A stretch of 24,000 bases of DNA from an uncultured Actinomycetota bacterium. Its GTDB lineage: Bacteria; Actinomycetota; Actinomycetes; Mycobacteriales; Pseudonocardiaceae. Shown here piece after piece: positions 15,160 to 21,702 of this stretch; within the stretch, counting starts at the first letter, position 1; every line of letters starts with the position of its first letter. The notes below the pieces were generated by a model. It saw only the letters and a list, made by a program, of their open reading frames with translations, did not search any database and had not been told where the DNA came from. Location: NCBI GenBank assembly GCA_963826035.1, contig CAWGVZ010000004.1:947131-971130 (forward strand), given 5' to 3'. Both the position numbers and the translations under genes were made by a program.

Positions 15160-16671
15160 CGGGGCAGGCTACCGGAGGGTTGGGAACTGCTCCTGGTGGT
15201 GTGTCGAAGCGTGATTGAACGCGGCGATTTGTCCATTGGCGGCGTTGTCGGTGGTGGTCGGTACGGTCATCGTCGATGAGCAAGATCATGCAGGCGTACC
15301 GGTTCGCCTTGGATCCGAGCGTGGCGCAGGAGTGGGCGTTGCGGTCGCATTGTGGCGCGCAGCGGTTCGCCTTCAACTGGGGTCTGGCTCGGGTGAAGGC
15401 GACCCTTGCTCAGCGGGACGCCGAAGCCTCCTACGGTCTTGCTGGTGATGATCTGACGCCGTCGTTGAGTTGGTCGGCGTATTCGCTGCGTAAGGCGTGG
15501 AACGGCGCCAAGGATGTGGTGGCGTCGTGGTGGGGTGAGAACTCCAAGGAGGCGTACTCCTCGGGGTTGGCGAACCTGGCCACGGCGTTGACGAACTGGC
15601 GCAACTCCCAGCGCGGCGAGCGGAAAGGACGCAAGCTCGGTTTCCCTCGGTTTCGGGGCCGTCGGTTCGGGCTGTCGTGCCGGTTCACCACCGGCAGCCT
15701 GGGTCTGGTCGATGCGGATCGGCGGCATGTGCGGTTGCCGCGGATCGGGGTGGTGCGCACGCACGAGTCGACCCGCAAGCTCGCCCGGCACGTGGAACGC
15801 GGCACCGCCCGCATCCGCTCGGCCACCGTCTCGCTGCGGTCCGGGCGTTGGTTCGTGTCGTTCTCGGTCGAGATCACCCGCGACGACCCGGCACCGGCAC
15901 GCCCGGATGGGGTGGTCGGGGTGGATCTCGGTGTGAAGTCGCTGGCCGTGCTGTCCACCGGCGAGGTCATCACCAACCCGAAACATCTCGACGTCGCACT
16001 GCGCGAACTGCGCCGGCTACAGCGGCAGGCCGCCCGCCGCCAGGGACCGGACAAGCGAACCAAGGCCAGGCCGTCAAACCGATGGCGCCAGACCCAAGCC
16101 CGGATCACGGCACTGCACGCGCAGGTGGCGAACGCGCGGCGAGATGGGCTGCACAAGCTGTCCACCCGCCTGGTGCGCACCTTCGGGACGATTGTGGTCG
16201 AGGATCTCAACGTGTCCGGCATGCTCGCCAACCGCCGTTTGGCGCGGCGTGTCGCGGGTGCCGGTTGGGGTGAGTTGCGCCGCCAGATCGAGTACAAGGC
16301 CACCTGGGCCGGTGCTGTGCGGGTGCGGGTCGCTGACCGGTGGTTCGCGAGTTCTAAGACGTGTTCGGGCTGTGGTGTGGTGAAAGCCAAGCTGCGCCTG
16401 TCCGACCGCATCTACCACTGTGACCAGTGCGGTCTCGTGCTGGATCGCGACGTCAACGCCGCCCGCAACCTCGCGGCACTGGTTGAGGCGACGTCTTCCC
16501 CGAGTTGCGGGGTGACGAGAAACGAGCCCGATGGAAACCCACGTAAGACCCGCATTGTGCGGGCGACGGGTATCGCCACGGGAAGACCCACGCCACCCGG
16601 TGCGGGCCAACGCCGACACGGCGACGCGTCGGCTCGGGACACGATTTCACATGTTTCCTGAACGGTATTGC
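15160..16671 (+). mobile_element. IS200/IS605-family element of the solo-tnpB (IS1341-like) type; ends not resolved
   Basis: It is bounded by the conserved neighbours (TB16.3-like start at 15158, metallophosphoesterase stop at 16672). It contains only tnpB, with no tnpA. Its codon third positions are visibly less GC-rich than the flanking genes (many TTG, CAT, TGT, GGT, CTT codons). Confidence 0.7.
15276..16661 (+). CDS. tnpB: TnpB, RNA-guided endonuclease of IS200/IS605-family elements (OrfB_IS605 plus Zn-ribbon)
   Basis: The N-terminus MQAYRFALDPS is typical of TnpB. RuvC-I is GVDLGVKS, RuvC-II is IVVEDLNVSGM, the zinc ribbon is CSGCG...CDQCG, and RuvC-III is DRDVNAARN. The start is ATG 15276 or ATG 15288. 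Confidence 0.92.
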   Translation: MSKIMQAYRFALDPSVAQEWALRSHCGAQRFAFNWGLARVKATLAQRDAEASYGLAGDDLTPSLSWSAYSLRKAWNGAKDVVASWWGENSKEAYSSGLANLATALTNWRNSQRGERKGRKLGFPRFRGRRFGLSCRFTTGSLGLVDADRRHVRLPRIGVVRTHESTRKLARHVERGTARIRSATVSLRSGRWFVSFSVEITRDDPAPARPDGVVGVDLGVKSLAVLSTGEVITNPKHLDVALRELRRLQRQAARRQGPDKRTKARPSNRWRQTQARITALHAQVANARRDGLHKLSTRLVRTFGTIVVEDLNVSGMLANRRLARRVAGAGWGELRRQIEYKATWAGAVRVRVADRWFASSKTCSGCGVVKAKLRLSDRIYHCDQCGLVLDRDVNAARNLAALVEATSSPSCGVTRNEPDGNPRKTRIVRATGIATGRPTPPGAGQRRHGDASARDTISHVS

Positions 16672-17469: not shown

Positions 17470-17859
17470 TTAACCAGGGGGCGGGCAGCCGGGCGGACGC
17501 CCGTCCTCGAGAACGGTCTTCAGATCGAGTGCCACGGCCTTCGCCGCCAGCTGGCGGCGGGCGATCTCGCGGCGGATCCGGGCCGGCTTGTGCGCACCCG
17601 GCAGGTCCGCGCGGAGGAAGTAGTGCAGCAGGGTGCCGTCGAGCTTCGGCTCCAGCCAGACCTCCATGGTGCCGACCAGCGCGCCCCGCACGGTCCACCG
17701 CAGCCCCTCGTCGCCGCGGTCGGCGTACACGTCCAGCTCCAGGTCCGGCCAGAAGCGGCGCCAGGCGGCGGGATCGGCGAACGCGGCGGCCACCACGCAC
17801 GGCGGCACCACGAGGAACGTCTCGTCGACCACGTCGACCCGGACATCAACGGCAGGCAC
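17470..17859 (-). CDS. SRPBCC-fold protein (Rv2186c-position homologue)
   Basis: 129 aa with high GC3. It is divergent from the FadD15-like gene, as Rv2186c is from Rv2187. The fold assignment is tentative. Confidence 0.6.
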   Translation of the reverse strand: MPAVDVRVDVVDETFLVVPPCVVAAAFADPAAWRRFWPDLELDVYADRGDEGLRWTVRGALVGTMEVWLEPKLDGTLLHYFLRADLPGAHKPARIRREIARRQLAAKAVALDLKTVLEDGRPPGCPPPG

Positions 17860-17920: not shown

Positions 17921-19042
17921 GTGACCGAACAGGAGAGCCTGACCGACATGGTCTGGGCCAACGCGGAGCGGTTCGGGGGCACGATCGGGTTCCGGCGCCG
18001 GGTTGACGGCTCCTGGTTGGACGTGACCACCCGGGAGTTCGCGACGCAGGTGCTCGACGTGGCCAAGGGCATGATCGCGGCCGGGCTGCGGCCGGGCGAC
18101 CGCATCGCGTTGCTGGCCGGCACTCGCTACGAGTGGTCCCTGTTCGACTTCGCCGGCCTGGCCATCGGCTGCCAGATCGTGCCGATCGCCGCGACCGCCA
18201 CGCCCGCCGACGTCGAGTGGATCCTCGCCGACTCCGGCGCGTGCGCGGTGGTGGTGGAGACGGCGGCGCACCGCGAGATCGTGCGTGCGGTGGTGGACCG
18301 GCTGCCCGAGATCGTGTGGGTCTGGCAGCTGGACGGCGACGTGCTCGACGATGGTGAGGACGTACCGGCCGCCATCGACGAGCTGACCGCGCTGGCCGGC
18401 GACGCGGGCTGGGTGACCGACGAGACGGTCCACCAGCGGCGGCTGGCCGTGCGCACCGACGACGTCGCCACGGTCGTGTACCCGCCGGGCACCGAGCGGC
18501 CCAAGCGGGTGGAGCTGACCCACGGTGACCTGCTGGCCGACGTGCGGTCGACCATCGCCGCGTTCCCCGCCCTGCTGCGCCCCGGCAACTCGCTGCTCGT
18601 CCTCCTGGCGCTGGCGGACCTGCCGGCCCGGGCCATCGCCATGTGCTGCGTCTACACGAGGACCACGCTCGGTCTCCTGCCCGAGGCCGGCGACCTGTTC
18701 ACCGACCTTGGCGTGTTCCGGCCGCGCGTGATCGTGGCCGGCACCGAGCTGCTGCGCGAGGTGTACGAGGCGGCGCGCGACAAGGCACACGCCGAGGGCG
18801 GCACGTTCCTGTTCGACGCGGCCGAGTCGGTGGCCAGGTCCTACGGGGCCGGCTCGGCGTCACTGGCGCTGCGGCTCAAGCACGCGGTGGCCGGCCGGGT
18901 GGTGTACCCGAAGCTGCGGGCGGCGTTCGGGGGTCGCTGCGTCGCGGCCATCACGGCCGGCGAGCCGCTCGACACCGATCGGGCGAACTTCTTCCGCGGC
19001 ATCGGCGTGGACGTGCACGAACTGGGGCTCGCGCCGGCCTGA
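17921..19042 (+). CDS. FadD15-like acyl-CoA ligase (AMP-binding family), C-terminally truncated and with a degenerate P-loop; possibly a pseudogene
   Basis: The N-terminal half aligns with long-chain acyl-CoA ligases (GDRIALLAGTRYEW...). The A3 motif reads VVYPPGTERPKRVELTH instead of the expected YTSGTTGxPKG. The ORF stops at GIGVDVHELGLAPA*, roughly where the (E)GYGLTE motif is expected. It is 373 aa, against about 600 aa for the family. Confidence 0.7.
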   Translation: MTEQESLTDMVWANAERFGGTIGFRRRVDGSWLDVTTREFATQVLDVAKGMIAAGLRPGDRIALLAGTRYEWSLFDFAGLAIGCQIVPIAATATPADVEWILADSGACAVVVETAAHREIVRAVVDRLPEIVWVWQLDGDVLDDGEDVPAAIDELTALAGDAGWVTDETVHQRRLAVRTDDVATVVYPPGTERPKRVELTHGDLLADVRSTIAAFPALLRPGNSLLVLLALADLPARAIAMCCVYTRTTLGLLPEAGDLFTDLGVFRPRVIVAGTELLREVYEAARDKAHAEGGTFLFDAAESVARSYGAGSASLALRLKHAVAGRVVYPKLRAAFGGRCVAAITAGEPLDTDRANFFRGIGVDVHELGLAPA

Positions 19043-19106: not shown

Positions 19107-20147
19107 ATGGTGACGGGCGTGAACAGCACAGTCGACAGCAGGGTGATCGTCCGCAAGATCGCCGGTGACCTGATCGCGCACCGCAACGCACTGGCCGGCA
19201 AGGCCGAGGACGCCTATCGCGCGCAGGAGGCGCTGGAGGCCACGGCCCGGGCGGTCGGCGAGCACCACACCGATCACAAGAACACGGCGGCCACCGCCAC
19301 CGGTCACTGGGAGGGGCGCAACGCCCAGGGCTTCGACCGCAAGGCCCGCCGGATGACCAGGGCGCTGCGCACGACGGCGACCGTGTCGGGCGGCGGCGCG
19401 AAGATCGTGGCGGACACGGCCGCGGCGCTCGACGGCGGGCACCGGGCGGTCACCAACCTGGTGGAGGAGTACACGACGCGGGCGGCGGGCGTGCTGGACG
19501 CCGGCCGGGCCGCCACCGGGGCGGGGTCGCGGGCCGCGCTGATGCGGGCGGTCGGGCAGGTGGTCGACCTGGTGCGGACGTACACGAACGAGTCGACCGC
19601 GCACGTGCGTTCGGTGCGCGGCGAGATGAAGGCCGCGGCGGCGAAGCTGCGCAAGCTGGAACGCACGGTGGAGCACGACGGGTTCGCCGATCCCGGCCGG
19701 GCGCGCCGGCCACGCCCCGAACCGGAGGGTCGCGGCGGCGGGAAGATCCTGAACGTCGCCCGCTCGCAGCTCGGCTACCGCGAAGGGCCGAACAACGCCA
19801 ACAAGTACGGACCGGACGTCGCGTGGTGCGCCAGCTTCGCCACCTGGGTCTGGCGAAAGTCGGGGGTGGACATCGGGATCCTCCCGTTCACCGGCGACGT
19901 CTACTCGTGGGGACAGGAACGAGGCCTCGCCTACGGGAAGAACAACCTCGACTCGGCCCGGCCCGGTGACGTGCTGCTGTTCGGCACCGGGCCGCAGAGC
20001 CCGTCCACCAGTACGCACATCGGGATCGTGGAGAGCGTGAAGGGCGACAAGGTGACGCTCATCGAGGGTAATTCGAGTGACCGGGTGCAACGTGTCACCC
20101 ACACGCTGTCCAGTGCGACGTTCTATGGAGGGGTGCACCCGAGGTGA
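19107..20147 (+). CDS. Two-domain protein: N-terminal WXG100-like helical domain fused to a C-terminal CHAP (Cys/His amidohydrolase/peptidase) peptidoglycan hydrolase domain
   Basis: W-x-G at residues 68-70 sits in the pattern HWEGRNAQGF (W.G..A..F) between predicted helices. The C-terminus carries CHAP hallmarks: GYREGPNNANKYG...AWCASFATWVW (catalytic Cys), GDVLLF, THIGIV (His) and LIEGNSS. There is no N-terminal signal peptide. Confidence 0.75.
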   Translation: MVTGVNSTVDSRVIVRKIAGDLIAHRNALAGKAEDAYRAQEALEATARAVGEHHTDHKNTAATATGHWEGRNAQGFDRKARRMTRALRTTATVSGGGAKIVADTAAALDGGHRAVTNLVEEYTTRAAGVLDAGRAATGAGSRAALMRAVGQVVDLVRTYTNESTAHVRSVRGEMKAAAAKLRKLERTVEHDGFADPGRARRPRPEPEGRGGGKILNVARSQLGYREGPNNANKYGPDVAWCASFATWVWRKSGVDIGILPFTGDVYSWGQERGLAYGKNNLDSARPGDVLLFGTGPQSPSTSTHIGIVESVKGDKVTLIEGNSSDRVQRVTHTLSSATFYGGVHPR

Positions 20148-20449
20148 CCGAGATAACCGGAGAGGCGCGGGATTCCGGCGTCGAGGCGCGGGTGTACCCG
20201 GGTGGGGCGCTGGCGGCGCTGACGCTCACCGCGCCCGCACTGGACCTGGGCGCCGTCCGGCTGGCGGCGACGATCGTGGACGTGGTGGCCGAGGCGACGG
20301 CGCGGGCCAACCGGCGCACGCGCCATGCGTTGCGCGACGCGCTGACCGGCCTCGACGAGCGGGACATGACGGCACTCGGCCTCGACCAGGACGAGGCGCT
20401 GACCGAGCGGGTGGAGTCGACCACGCCGCGGACCTGGAGGACGGCGTGA
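20144..20449 (+). CDS. Small YbaB/EbfC-like (EspL-like) protein
   Basis: 101 aa. The GTG start overlaps the upstream stop as GTGA. The core pattern is EARDSGVEARVYPGGALAALTLTAPALDLGAVRLAATIVDVVAEA. There is no signal peptide. Confidence 0.55.
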   Translation: MTEITGEARDSGVEARVYPGGALAALTLTAPALDLGAVRLAATIVDVVAEATARANRRTRHALRDALTGLDERDMTALGLDQDEALTERVESTTPRTWRTA

Positions 20450-20805
20450 GCGTGGACGGCCTGTTCGACCGGCTGGCGAGCATCACCGCCTCCGCCGCCG
20501 ACGAGGAACACGGCATCGAGGCGACCGTGAACCTGGACGGCAAGCTCGTGGGGTTGTCCCTGGCGCCCCAGGCGTTGAGCCTCGCCCCGGACCGACTGGC
20601 GGCGGCCGTGTTCACGGTGACGCAGCGGGCGGCGGCCGTGGCGTTGCGGGAGGGGCTTGAGCTGGTGGCCCCGGTGGCGGGCGAGGAGCTGACGGCCGAG
20701 CTGACGGAGCTGGTGGAGTCCCACCCCGGCGCTCCCGCGACTCCCGAGCCGCGACCCCCGGAGGAGGACTTCTCCACCATCGAGACGTGGGCCCTACCCC
20801 GCTGA
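20446..20805 (+). CDS. Second small YbaB/EbfC-like protein with an acidic, Pro-rich tail
   Basis: 119 aa. The GTG start overlaps the upstream stop as GTGA. The core is EEHGIEATVNLDGKLVGLSLAPQALSLAPDRLAAAVFTVTQRAAAVA. The 3' end overlaps the convergent gene by 12 nt. Confidence 0.55.
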   Translation: MSVDGLFDRLASITASAADEEHGIEATVNLDGKLVGLSLAPQALSLAPDRLAAAVFTVTQRAAAVALREGLELVAPVAGEELTAELTELVESHPGAPATPEPRPPEEDFSTIETWALPR

Positions 20806-21702
20806 CTCAGGACTCCGGACCAACCGAAACCAACCGGACTCCCCCTCACGTTCGAACGGGGCCGAGTCCACGATCCAGCCGTCGGGCCAGTCCGACCAGA
20901 CGGGTTCGTCGGACGCGCGGCGGAAGGTGGCACCGTCGAGCCAGATGGAGCCGATGATCTCAGCGTCCCGGAACCACGCGCCGGCGTGGAACTCGGCCTC
21001 CATGAACGACGTGACGCCGGTGAACGTCGTTCTCACGAACCTGGCGCGGCCTACGGTGAAGCGGGTTCCCGTGAACTTGGCTTCGTAGAGTTCGCAGTCG
21101 CTGAAGTTGACGTCCACCAGAGTGGCGCCGCTCAGGTCCAGGTGCAGGCCCGGCCAGTGGTCGGGAGCCGTTGGCCGTTGGTGCGCTGCCAGGATGCGCT
21201 GCGCGGTCACCCGCACCTCGCGTTCCTGCCGGGTGATCAGGTCGCCCTGCGGGCCCGTGGCCGACGGCATGCGCAGGTAGGCGCACAGCACGTTGACGAT
21301 GGTCTGCCGCTGCGTCGGGTTGTCCTGCGCCAGCCGCTCCAGCGCGTACAGCCCGCCGAGCCGCACCGGGGCCTTCTCCGAGCCGAGCTGCTCCACGGCC
21401 GTCGCGTAGAGGTCGGTGACCCGGCGAGCGGTGGCGTCCGCCTCGGTGTGTGCCAGTTCCAGCTCCTGCGTCCGCTGCCGGCGCGCCGCCAGGTAGAGCG
21501 CGAACAGCCCACCGCCGCCGACCGCGACACCAGAGGTCACCTTCACCACGTCGAGCAGTGCCGTCGTCTTCTGCGCCGGGTCGGTCCACGGCTGGCCGTC
21601 GACCCACCACCACAGCGCCACCAGCACTCCGCCCGCGATCACCAGGACCGCGGCGGCCACACCCCACACCGTCCACCGTGGCAGGGGGTGGCGGGTCGGC
21701 AT
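20794..21702 (-). CDS. Membrane-anchored pentapeptide-repeat protein
   Basis: Two N-terminal TM helices (WTVWGVAAAVLVIAGGVLVALWWW and VTSGVAVGGGGLFALYLAA). A helical segment (VRLGGLYALERLAQDNP) follows, then pentapeptide-like repeats (LSGATLVDVNFSDCELYEAKFTGTRFTVGRARFVRTTFTGVTSFMEAEF). The ATG overlaps the pimB' stop as TAATG. Confidence 0.8.
   Translation of the reverse strand: MPTRHPLPRWTVWGVAAAVLVIAGGVLVALWWWVDGQPWTDPAQKTTALLDVVKVTSGVAVGGGGLFALYLAARRQRTQELELAHTEADATARRVTDLYATAVEQLGSEKAPVRLGGLYALERLAQDNPTQRQTIVNVLCAYLRMPSATGPQGDLITRQEREVRVTAQRILAAHQRPTAPDHWPGLHLDLSGATLVDVNFSDCELYEAKFTGTRFTVGRARFVRTTFTGVTSFMEAEFHAGAWFRDAEIIGSIWLDGATFRRASDEPVWSDWPDGWIVDSAPFEREGESGWFRLVRSPESAG

Follow-up and report, generated by a model that had tools for sequence, protein, structure and literature searches.

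A conserved three-gene operon of Pseudonocardiaceae encoding a WXG100-related CHAP hydrolase and two YbaB-like proteins, a predicted type VII secretion substrate module

The DNA analysed here (the window) is a stretch of 24,000 nucleotides from contig CAWGVZ010000004.1 (positions 947,131 to 971,130 of the forward strand; GenBank assembly GCA_963826035.1), which belongs to an uncultured member of the Pseudonocardiaceae. It has a G+C content of 72% and its nearest relatives are Actinophytocola (Pseudonocardiaceae); a contig from a metagenome-assembled genome (L001) shares 90% protein identity with it. The subject of this study is a cassette of three genes on the forward strand, which a first-pass annotation made from the sequence alone had singled out as a candidate type VII secretion system (T7SS) effector module. 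Gene 1 (19107..20147, ATG start, no leader) codes for a predicted hydrolase of 346 residues and was defined by its open reading frame (ORF), its G+C content at third codon positions (GC3), its homologues and an AlphaFold2 (AF2) model. Gene 2 (20144..20449, GTG start) codes for a YbaB-like protein of 101 residues and was defined by its ORF and by paralogy with gene 3 (20446..20805, GTG start), whose product of 119 residues has a YbaB fold according to AF2 and Foldseek. Direct reading of the sequence showed that the stop codon of gene 1 and the start codon of gene 2 overlap in a GTGA at 20144..20147, and those of genes 2 and 3 in a GTGA at 20446..20449; the coordinates given for these overlaps in the annotation were exact. 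GGAGG-type Shine-Dalgarno-like motifs lie 4-10 nt before the starts of genes 2 and 3, inside the 3' end of the preceding gene.

The GC3 values of genes 1, 2 and 3 are 0.92, 0.92 and 0.93, compared to 0.66-0.83 for overlapping ORFs in alternative frames, and the ratios of nonsynonymous to synonymous substitution rates (dN/dS) calculated against the 90%-identical L001 are 0.22, 0.18 and 0.23. Because of this high GC3 and of dN/dS values of about 0.2, the three genes are considered genuine and under purifying selection. Among the relatives looked at, the triad was present wherever the hydrolase was found, and its overlapping, translationally coupled arrangement was kept in every one; the 4-bp overlaps themselves were retained in loci L001, L040 and L041, and L042 keeps the one between genes 1 and 2. 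A hydropathy test, a simple one made with no dedicated signal predictor, detected neither hydrophobic or signal-like segments nor a twin-arginine motif in proteins 1, 2 and 3 (maximum KD19 values of 0.84, 1.45 and 0.96, respectively), in agreement with the proposed lack of Sec or Tat signals. A scan for sigma-70 promoters and terminators gave nothing informative.

Around 400 homologues of protein 1 were found, in Pseudonocardiaceae, including Actinophytocola, Actinokineospora, Labedaea and Amycolatopsis, and nearly all of the 120 that were listed span the full length of the query. In the AF2 model (pLDDT 85.5) a helical N-terminal domain (residues 1-187, 19107..19667, forward strand as for all cassette features) is followed by a disordered linker (residues 188-209, 19668..19733; pLDDT 49-55), which carries large indels and varies in length among homologues, and by a compact CHAP domain (residues 210-346, 19734..20144). 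The Pfam CHAP family (PF05257) matched residues 234-322 with 47.5 bits, well above its cut-off of 26, and an E of 2.6e-12; the match spans profile positions 2-81 of 81. The catalytic residues Cys241 (19827-19829) and His304 (20016-20018), as well as E320, G321 and N322 (20064-20072), are invariant across 59 aligned family members, and the CHAP domain had thus been correctly described as complete. When the profile of the full protein 1 family was compared to PDB sequences, it gave a weak match to Tn916-type wall hydrolases only, with the catalytic Cys and His aligned, and the CHAP domain alone gave no match in the same sequences. Searches of plasmid and phage sequences returned endolysins and CHAP proteins that matched the CHAP part alone (residues 213-345). 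Since the N-terminal domain was absent from these matches, an origin of protein 1 from a mobile element was ruled out.

A group of Nocardia loci (L002-L028) codes for proteins of 356-380 residues that have a closely related CHAP domain and, as is the case for protein 1, show no evident signal sequence at their N-terminus. Their helical N-terminal domain is a different one, with no WxG and no match to the N-domain profile described below, and no YbaB-like genes lie downstream. With this other N-domain and no YbaB-like genes, they were rejected as representatives of the same module.

The whole protein 1 model was also compared to the PDB using Foldseek, and the top matches were Cg1735 (8aud) and PcsB (4cgk), with E values of 1e-4 to 2.5e-4; some JGI annotations moreover name homologues of protein 1 CwlO. 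Protein 1 might therefore be a division hydrolase of the PcsB/CwlO/RipC type, with a coiled-coil N-domain that holds the CHAP domain inactive until activation by a membrane partner, for instance FtsEX, and with no role in type VII secretion. PcsB, CwlO, RipC and Cg1735 leave the cell by general export pathways, whereas no N-terminal signal-like segment was seen in protein 1 or in 18 aligned homologues. The superposition of Cg1735 and PcsB on protein 1 was poor, with template modelling (TM) scores of only 0.28-0.30 and a root-mean-square deviation (rmsd) of 17-36 Å, and these matches thus reflect a common architecture rather than superposable structures. As the relatives of the N-domain by sequence profile are WXG100 and PPE proteins, and the neighbouring genes in related loci are EspC, EspG and PPE genes and not FtsEX, we consider a division hydrolase of this type highly unlikely.

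The N-terminal domain is composed of four helices in the model (residues 11-29, 32-66, 71-135 and 141-187). The codons of W68-E-G70 lie at 19308..19316, and this WxG motif, invariant in the 59 sequences, forms the turn between the helices 32-66 and 71-135, as the annotation had foreseen in describing a W-x-G hairpin. Besides W68 and G70, the invariant residues of the domain are L118, E121, Y122, A126, D131 and G140. Conserved residues gather at the tip of helices 3 and 4 (L118, E121, Y122, A126, D131, G140 and A144), and this region is a plausible chaperone-binding site, in analogy to the tip to which EspG binds in PPE proteins. The only Y-x-x-x-E of protein 1 (at Y37) is not conserved. Y122 and Y159-x-x-E162 were considered as an internal YxxxD/E signal and rejected, as their spacing is wrong and the model places them at a distance from the WxG end.

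An N-domain profile, built from residues 1-195 of 12 family members, retrieved just 61 of 1.84 billion representative proteins at E<=1e-3. Fifty-five of them were scanned with Pfam: 16 matched WXG100_2 (PF25547) and 11 WXG100 (PF06013), both at E<=0.001, 4 matched PPE, 1 EspC and 1 EspA_EspE. Where examples were listed individually, the WXG100-type match and that of the N-domain profile fall on overlapping regions. Foldseek matched the domain to PPE41 and PPE15 (TM 0.58-0.66 over 149-171 columns), a likeness to PPE proteins that is one of fold only, as protein 1 itself has neither a Pfam PPE match nor a Pro-Pro-Glu motif. Because its profile relatives match WXG100, WXG100_2 and PPE, the N-domain is, as judged from profiles and from the model, a divergent member of the WXG100/PPE superfamily. 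The WXG100-like character proposed initially is thus borne out by this profile-level kinship together with the PPE41 and PPE15 fold match.

In the AF2 model of protein 3 (pLDDT 82.9), a helix leads into three strands and two further helices, and the remainder of the chain, a Pro-rich linker and the tail, is disordered. All its meaningful Foldseek matches in the PDB are members of the YbaB family (1pug, 1j8b, 3f42, 5yrx and 1ybx, TM 0.56-0.77), with best-chain probabilities of 0.89-1.0, yet E values of only 0.03-0.25. The match to E. coli YbaB (1pug) reached a TM of 0.77 with an rmsd of 2.1 Å, and the other structures include those of H. influenzae (1j8b), HP0035 (3f42) and M. tuberculosis Rv3716c (5yrx). 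Protein 2 is without the first YbaB helix. Alignment of the protein 2 and protein 3 family profiles with hhalign gave a probability of 96.5% and an E of 7.8e-10, and on this profile comparison the two proteins are paralogues. Several homologues of protein 2 carry a precomputed match to Pfam YbaB (PF02575), and in locus L045 the proteins at the same operon positions pass the cut-off of this family with 32.6 and 32.0 bits. The YbaB/EbfC-like assignment of the annotation holds, for protein 3 by its modelled fold and for protein 2 via paralogy, with the L045 counterparts above the cut-off.

Both small proteins end in a tail that is conserved across homologues: TTPxTWR in protein 2 (20420-20449) and EEDFSxIExWALPR in protein 3 (20760-20802). 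Such short Trp-containing tails (TTPxTWR; DFSxIExWALPR or TPATWR), placed after flexible linkers in both paralogues, were seen in L040, L041 and L044-L048, and the operons with an NlpC/P60 hydrolase described below keep related tails. The tails could serve as a docking motif. The protein 2 and protein 3 families are fast-diverging, with only 16 and 22 homologues retrieved.

The C-termini found among the 55 scanned relatives of the N-domain are varied: CHAP in 8, NlpC/P60 in 7, and VanY, LysM, Abhydrolase_8, ADPrib_exo_Tox/ART, Tox-REase-9 and RHS as single cases. The comparison with polymorphic toxins made in the first-pass annotation thus applies at the level of the superfamily, which displays the combination of a trafficking domain with varying cargo known from actinobacterial WXG toxins (PMC3482391); within the protein 1 family itself the C-terminus is constant. 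The presence of ADP-ribosyltransferase, Tox-REase-9 and RHS toxin domains behind related N-domains, and the fact that polymorphic toxins led by a WXG domain form an established class in Actinobacteria (PMC3482391), would be consistent with a T7SS-exported antibacterial effector that the YbaB-like proteins neutralise, or against which they confer immunity, in the producing cell. The small proteins also evolve faster than the hydrolase, with 57% and 52% identity to their L041 counterparts compared to 71% for protein 1. However, a peptidoglycan hydrolase works outside the membrane, and the small proteins have neither a signal peptide nor a lipobox; the hydrolase is conserved over its full length at one syntenic site across genera rather than being patchily distributed with a variable C-terminus, and orphan cassettes for toxins or immunity proteins are absent from its vicinity. 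An antibacterial role is thus regarded as unlikely, though it deserves more weight than the other alternatives discussed here.

The module is single-copy and syntenic, at one housekeeping locus, across genera, and its surroundings in the related loci are informative. In Actinokineospora sp. G85 the triad occupies the same chromosomal site, and a 152-residue gene directly upstream matches Pfam T7SS_ESX_EspC above threshold; the EspC-like partners reach 31.3 bits where the family cut-off is 23.5. In the Labedaea locus, an EspC-like gene and a FadD fragment of 306 residues accompany the triad. In Amycolatopsis-type loci, genes of the DUF6317/WXG100-like and T7SS_signal-like kinds, EspG and a PPE gene come after the triad. 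The upstream partners each carry a Y-x-x-x-D/E motif close to their C-terminus (YQRED, YQHQD, YRDQE or YRRQD), and a partner with this motif is present in L040, L042, L044, L045, L046 and L048. L044 and L045 are metagenomic relatives found via the N-domain profile only, in which an NlpC/P60 domain replaces CHAP in the same operon. L045 encodes a 124-residue partner (YVLND), a WXG-NlpC/P60 protein and the two proteins above the YbaB cut-off; in L044, a 112-residue partner (YRAVE) and a WXG-NlpC/P60 protein are followed by a single YbaB-like protein, which is sub-threshold, and then by a 93-residue protein with a YxxxD motif and no YbaB match. The linkage to type VII secretion that the first-pass annotation anticipated was therefore found in relatives, in the form of EspC-like YxxxD/E partners and of EspG, PPE and T7SS_signal genes.

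In the product of the gene upstream of the CHAP gene in the Amycolatopsis-type loci (L042, 9294-10001; L048, 7123-7983), an N-terminal SLT lytic transglycosylase is joined to an EspC-like domain that forms the C-terminal part and bears YxxxD/E. In this 'reverse' order, with the enzyme first and the helical domain of T7SS type last, two different wall hydrolases would be paired in one predicted substrate dimer.

The lack of an export signal by hydropathy, the absence of T7SS genes from the window and the classical role of YbaB/EbfC proteins in DNA binding (PMC9610160) might be taken to indicate a cytoplasmic module, in which the CHAP domain would be an intracellular amidase comparable to glutathionylspermidine amidase and the YbaB-like proteins nucleoid-associated or regulatory DNA-binding proteins. 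Such a role would leave unexplained the invariant WxG hairpin, the profile kinship of the N-domain to T7SS substrates, and the relatives with EspC-like YxxxD/E partners in cis and EspG and PPE neighbours. Protein 2 is moreover devoid of the first YbaB helix and both small proteins have family-specific C-terminal tails. We therefore judge a cytoplasmic function to be very improbable.

Upstream of the cassette lies a truncated gene for a FadD15-like acyl-CoA synthetase (17921..19042, forward strand), which matches Pfam AMP-binding over profile positions 16-310 of 384; its GTG start at 17921 is probable and was placed by alignment with an orthologue. By tblastn this gene aligns to residues 22-395 of the 606-residue orthologue of Actinokineospora, so that about 210 C-terminal residues are missing, and no 3' remnant was found. 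The truncation had been recognised in the first-pass annotation, which had also proposed that the cassette fills the place of the missing 3' half. The latter does not hold, as in Actinokineospora the cassette stands at the same site beside an intact 606-residue FadD15; since both coexist there, the cassette did not displace the FadD15 half. A single deletion removing the fadD15 3' half together with the EspC-like gene was also considered and was weakened by Labedaea, where fadD15 is truncated yet the EspC-like gene is kept. The FadD15-like gene is shortened to 306-382 residues in several lineages (the window, L001, L041, L046 and L047). It has an open frame, with a GC3 of 0.95 in the window, and its N-terminal adenylation subdomain may persist as a functional protein rather than as a pseudogene.

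No gene for an EspC-like or YxxxD/E-bearing partner was found in the loci of the Actinophytocola lineage (the window, L001, L041 and L047), although one is present in the Actinokineospora, Labedaea and Amycolatopsis-type loci. The module could accordingly be a decaying orphan in this lineage, no longer secreted after the loss of its partner and of the fadD15 3' half. The three frames are, however, intact, the catalytic and WxG residues are conserved, dN/dS is about 0.2, and the partner could be encoded elsewhere in the genome; decay appears quite improbable.

With slightly better than even chances, in our estimation, the cassette encodes a predicted ESX-type T7SS substrate with an enzymatic cargo and its dedicated cytosolic chaperones. 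The N-domain, of the PPE/EspA type with WxG in the turn, would be the secretion domain, and in relatives it would pair with the EspC-like YxxxD/E protein to constitute a bipartite T7SS signal. The YbaB-fold paralogues, which by analogy with dimeric YbaB probably form a heterodimer, would bind the substrate in the cytoplasm and stabilise or target it, as EspH does for EspE/EspF and EspD for EspA/EspC. Once exported, the CHAP domain would cleave peptidoglycan. As to its target, we think it likelier that the producer remodels its own wall than that other bacteria are killed, because the module is single-copy, vertically inherited, syntenic, conserved in full length and devoid of an exported immunity gene, and because the closest precedents, EssH and a conjugation hydrolase of M. 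smegmatis, are self-directed. Possible roles would be to assist the passage of the secretion apparatus, of substrates or of DNA, or hyphal development. The effector module of the initial proposal is thus retained as a T7SS-type substrate, on the grounds of its N-domain, CHAP domain, YbaB-like proteins and neighbours in relatives, and is not favoured in the sense of an antibacterial toxin.

Several observations weigh against a T7SS substrate. Protein 1 of the window reached only a sub-threshold score with Pfam WXG100_2 (E 0.32, 11.4 bits against 27) and had no match to WXG100, nor to T7SS_signal, LXG (at E<=1) or EspA_EspE, and the best whole-protein structural matches are those to Cg1735 and PcsB mentioned above. 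Similarly, proteins 2 and 3 of the window remained below the cut-off of Pfam YbaB (17.3 and 20.4 bits against 25.5), and profiles of both small-protein families gave no significant match, YbaB included, when compared to PDB sequences. To the missing partner gene of the Actinophytocola lineage is added the absence of any remnant of it in the window. Neither the 24 kb of the window nor, in L040 and L041, the DNA up to 10 kb from the cassette contains a T7SS core gene. Finally, the SigM-type -35 element GGAACCG is absent from the 700 bp that precede the cassette in the window, and relatives show no conserved GGAAC; on this basis a SigM-type promoter was rejected.

A bolder form of the substrate hypothesis is that the module represents an ancestral, enzyme-carrying form of the mycobacterial Esp sets (EspC-like, EspA-like and EspD-like), and that the paired YbaB-fold proteins, beyond stabilising the substrate, act as targeting adaptors. 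Their conserved tails would dock the substrate to the T7SS ATPase and could thereby take the place of the YxxxD/E partner missing in the Actinophytocola lineage. This is distinctly unlikely in our view, but if it were true, a non-helical chaperone would provide a T7SS secretion signal in trans, and that signal would be of a new type.

The cassette is embedded in a block of genes which we take to correspond to the Rv2176-Rv2188c block of M. tuberculosis. The block comprises genes for a PASTA kinase, a class II DAHP synthase, an Rv2179c-like exoribonuclease, an acyltransferase, a ROK kinase, an ArsA-like ATPase, a polyketide cyclase-like protein, a metallophosphoesterase, the FadD15-like AMP-binding enzyme, a GT4 glycosyltransferase and a Peptidase_MA_2 protein. 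Between the polyketide cyclase-like and metallophosphoesterase genes lies a TnpB/IS605 OrfB-like ORF of 461 residues (15276-16661, forward strand) with HTH_OrfB_IS605, OrfB_IS605 and Cas12f1-like TNB domains and a GC3 of only 0.80; it is a lineage-specific insertion, since the two flanking genes are adjacent in L040, L041, L046 and L047. A pentapeptide-repeat protein of 302 residues with an N-terminal transmembrane segment (KD19 2.53) is encoded on the reverse strand at 20794-21702, convergent with gene 3 and overlapping its 3' end by 12 bp. Because this gene is absent from all related loci, L001 included, it is taken as an insertion specific to this strain, which separates the cassette from the GT4 gene. 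A conserved protein of 129 residues without Pfam match is encoded between the metallophosphoesterase and FadD15-like genes (17470-17859, reverse strand) and has counterparts of 124-128 residues in all related loci.

The YbaB-fold proteins EspL, EspD and EspH are among the least understood components of ESX-1, and Esp substrates are mostly regarded as mycobacterial. The operon described here is a compact and widely conserved module outside Mycobacterium, in which a WXG-tagged wall hydrolase and two YbaB-like proteins are often joined by an EspC-like partner and the cargo, in its CHAP or NlpC/P60 version, is an easily assayed enzyme. It may offer a tractable system in which to study how T7SS substrates are recognised by YbaB-like chaperones, whether T7SSa systems export wall-remodelling enzymes of their own, in the way that EssH acts for the T7SSb, and how espACD-type operons originated, and it provides a context for the hydrolase operons of the SigM/ESX-4 regulon of M. 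abscessus and M. smegmatis.

The known systems to which the module can be compared resemble it to different degrees. PcsB and the RipA-like Cg1735 have the same overall shape, with a CHAP or NlpC/P60 domain placed behind an extended helical N-domain, but rely on general export pathways and on control by FtsEX or a membrane partner, whereas protein 1 is without signal peptide and its N-domain is akin to WXG100 and PPE proteins. The LXG and WXG polymorphic toxins (PMC3482391, PMC10801868) have in common with it a helical targeting N-domain, an enzymatic C-terminus and small co-encoded partners. They differ in that protein 1 has no Pfam LXG match and is a wall hydrolase at a syntenic locus with no immunity gene, and in that its helpers are of the alpha/beta YbaB fold, unlike the helical Lap partners of LXG toxins. 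In S. aureus, EssH is a CHAP hydrolase that is dedicated to the T7SSb, depends on its N-domain for function and helps the machinery or its substrates to cross the peptidoglycan (PMC13059805). EssH and protein 1 are thus alike as CHAP wall hydrolases with an N-domain tied, in the latter case by prediction, to a type VII system. The S. aureus enzyme belongs, however, to a T7SSb of Bacillota, has no YbaB-like partners and carries a signal peptide instead of a WXG-type domain.

The ESX-1 sets espA-espC-espD and espE-espF-espH come closer, as they co-encode a larger helical WxG protein, an EspC-type partner with YxxxD/E and a chaperone of the YbaB fold. The YbaB-like EspH binds EspE in the cytosol, EspD stabilises EspA and EspC, and EspL is likewise YbaB-like (PMC6107294, PMC6109436). 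In the family described here, the EspC-like partner is found in relatives and not in the window, the WxG protein carries a C-terminal CHAP domain without a Pfam EspA_EspE match, the YbaB-like proteins are two paralogues with W-containing tails, and the locus lies outside any esx cluster, in a Pseudonocardiaceae host. Operon 12 of M. abscessus encodes the PE-like Mab_3663, the WXG-NlpC/P60 protein Mab_3664, the Rv3716c-like Mab_3665 and the YbaB/EspL-like Mab_3666; it belongs to the SigM/ESX-4 regulon, and the products of the SigM-regulon operons have been proposed as ESX-4 substrates, their secretion being predicted (PMC13491425). These four genes have the same four-part architecture as the operons of Actinokineospora, Labedaea, L044 and L045, a likeness of Mab_3664 that is one of architecture and not of aligned sequence, and the architecture is therefore not entirely without a published description, contrary to what had been supposed in the first-pass annotation. 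The cargo of Mab_3664 is NlpC/P60 rather than CHAP, and its operon depends on SigM, whereas no SigM-type -35 element precedes the cassette. Compared to this known kind of operon, what is new in the cassette is its CHAP cargo, its Pseudonocardiaceae host and an organisation that, in this lineage, dispenses with the partner.

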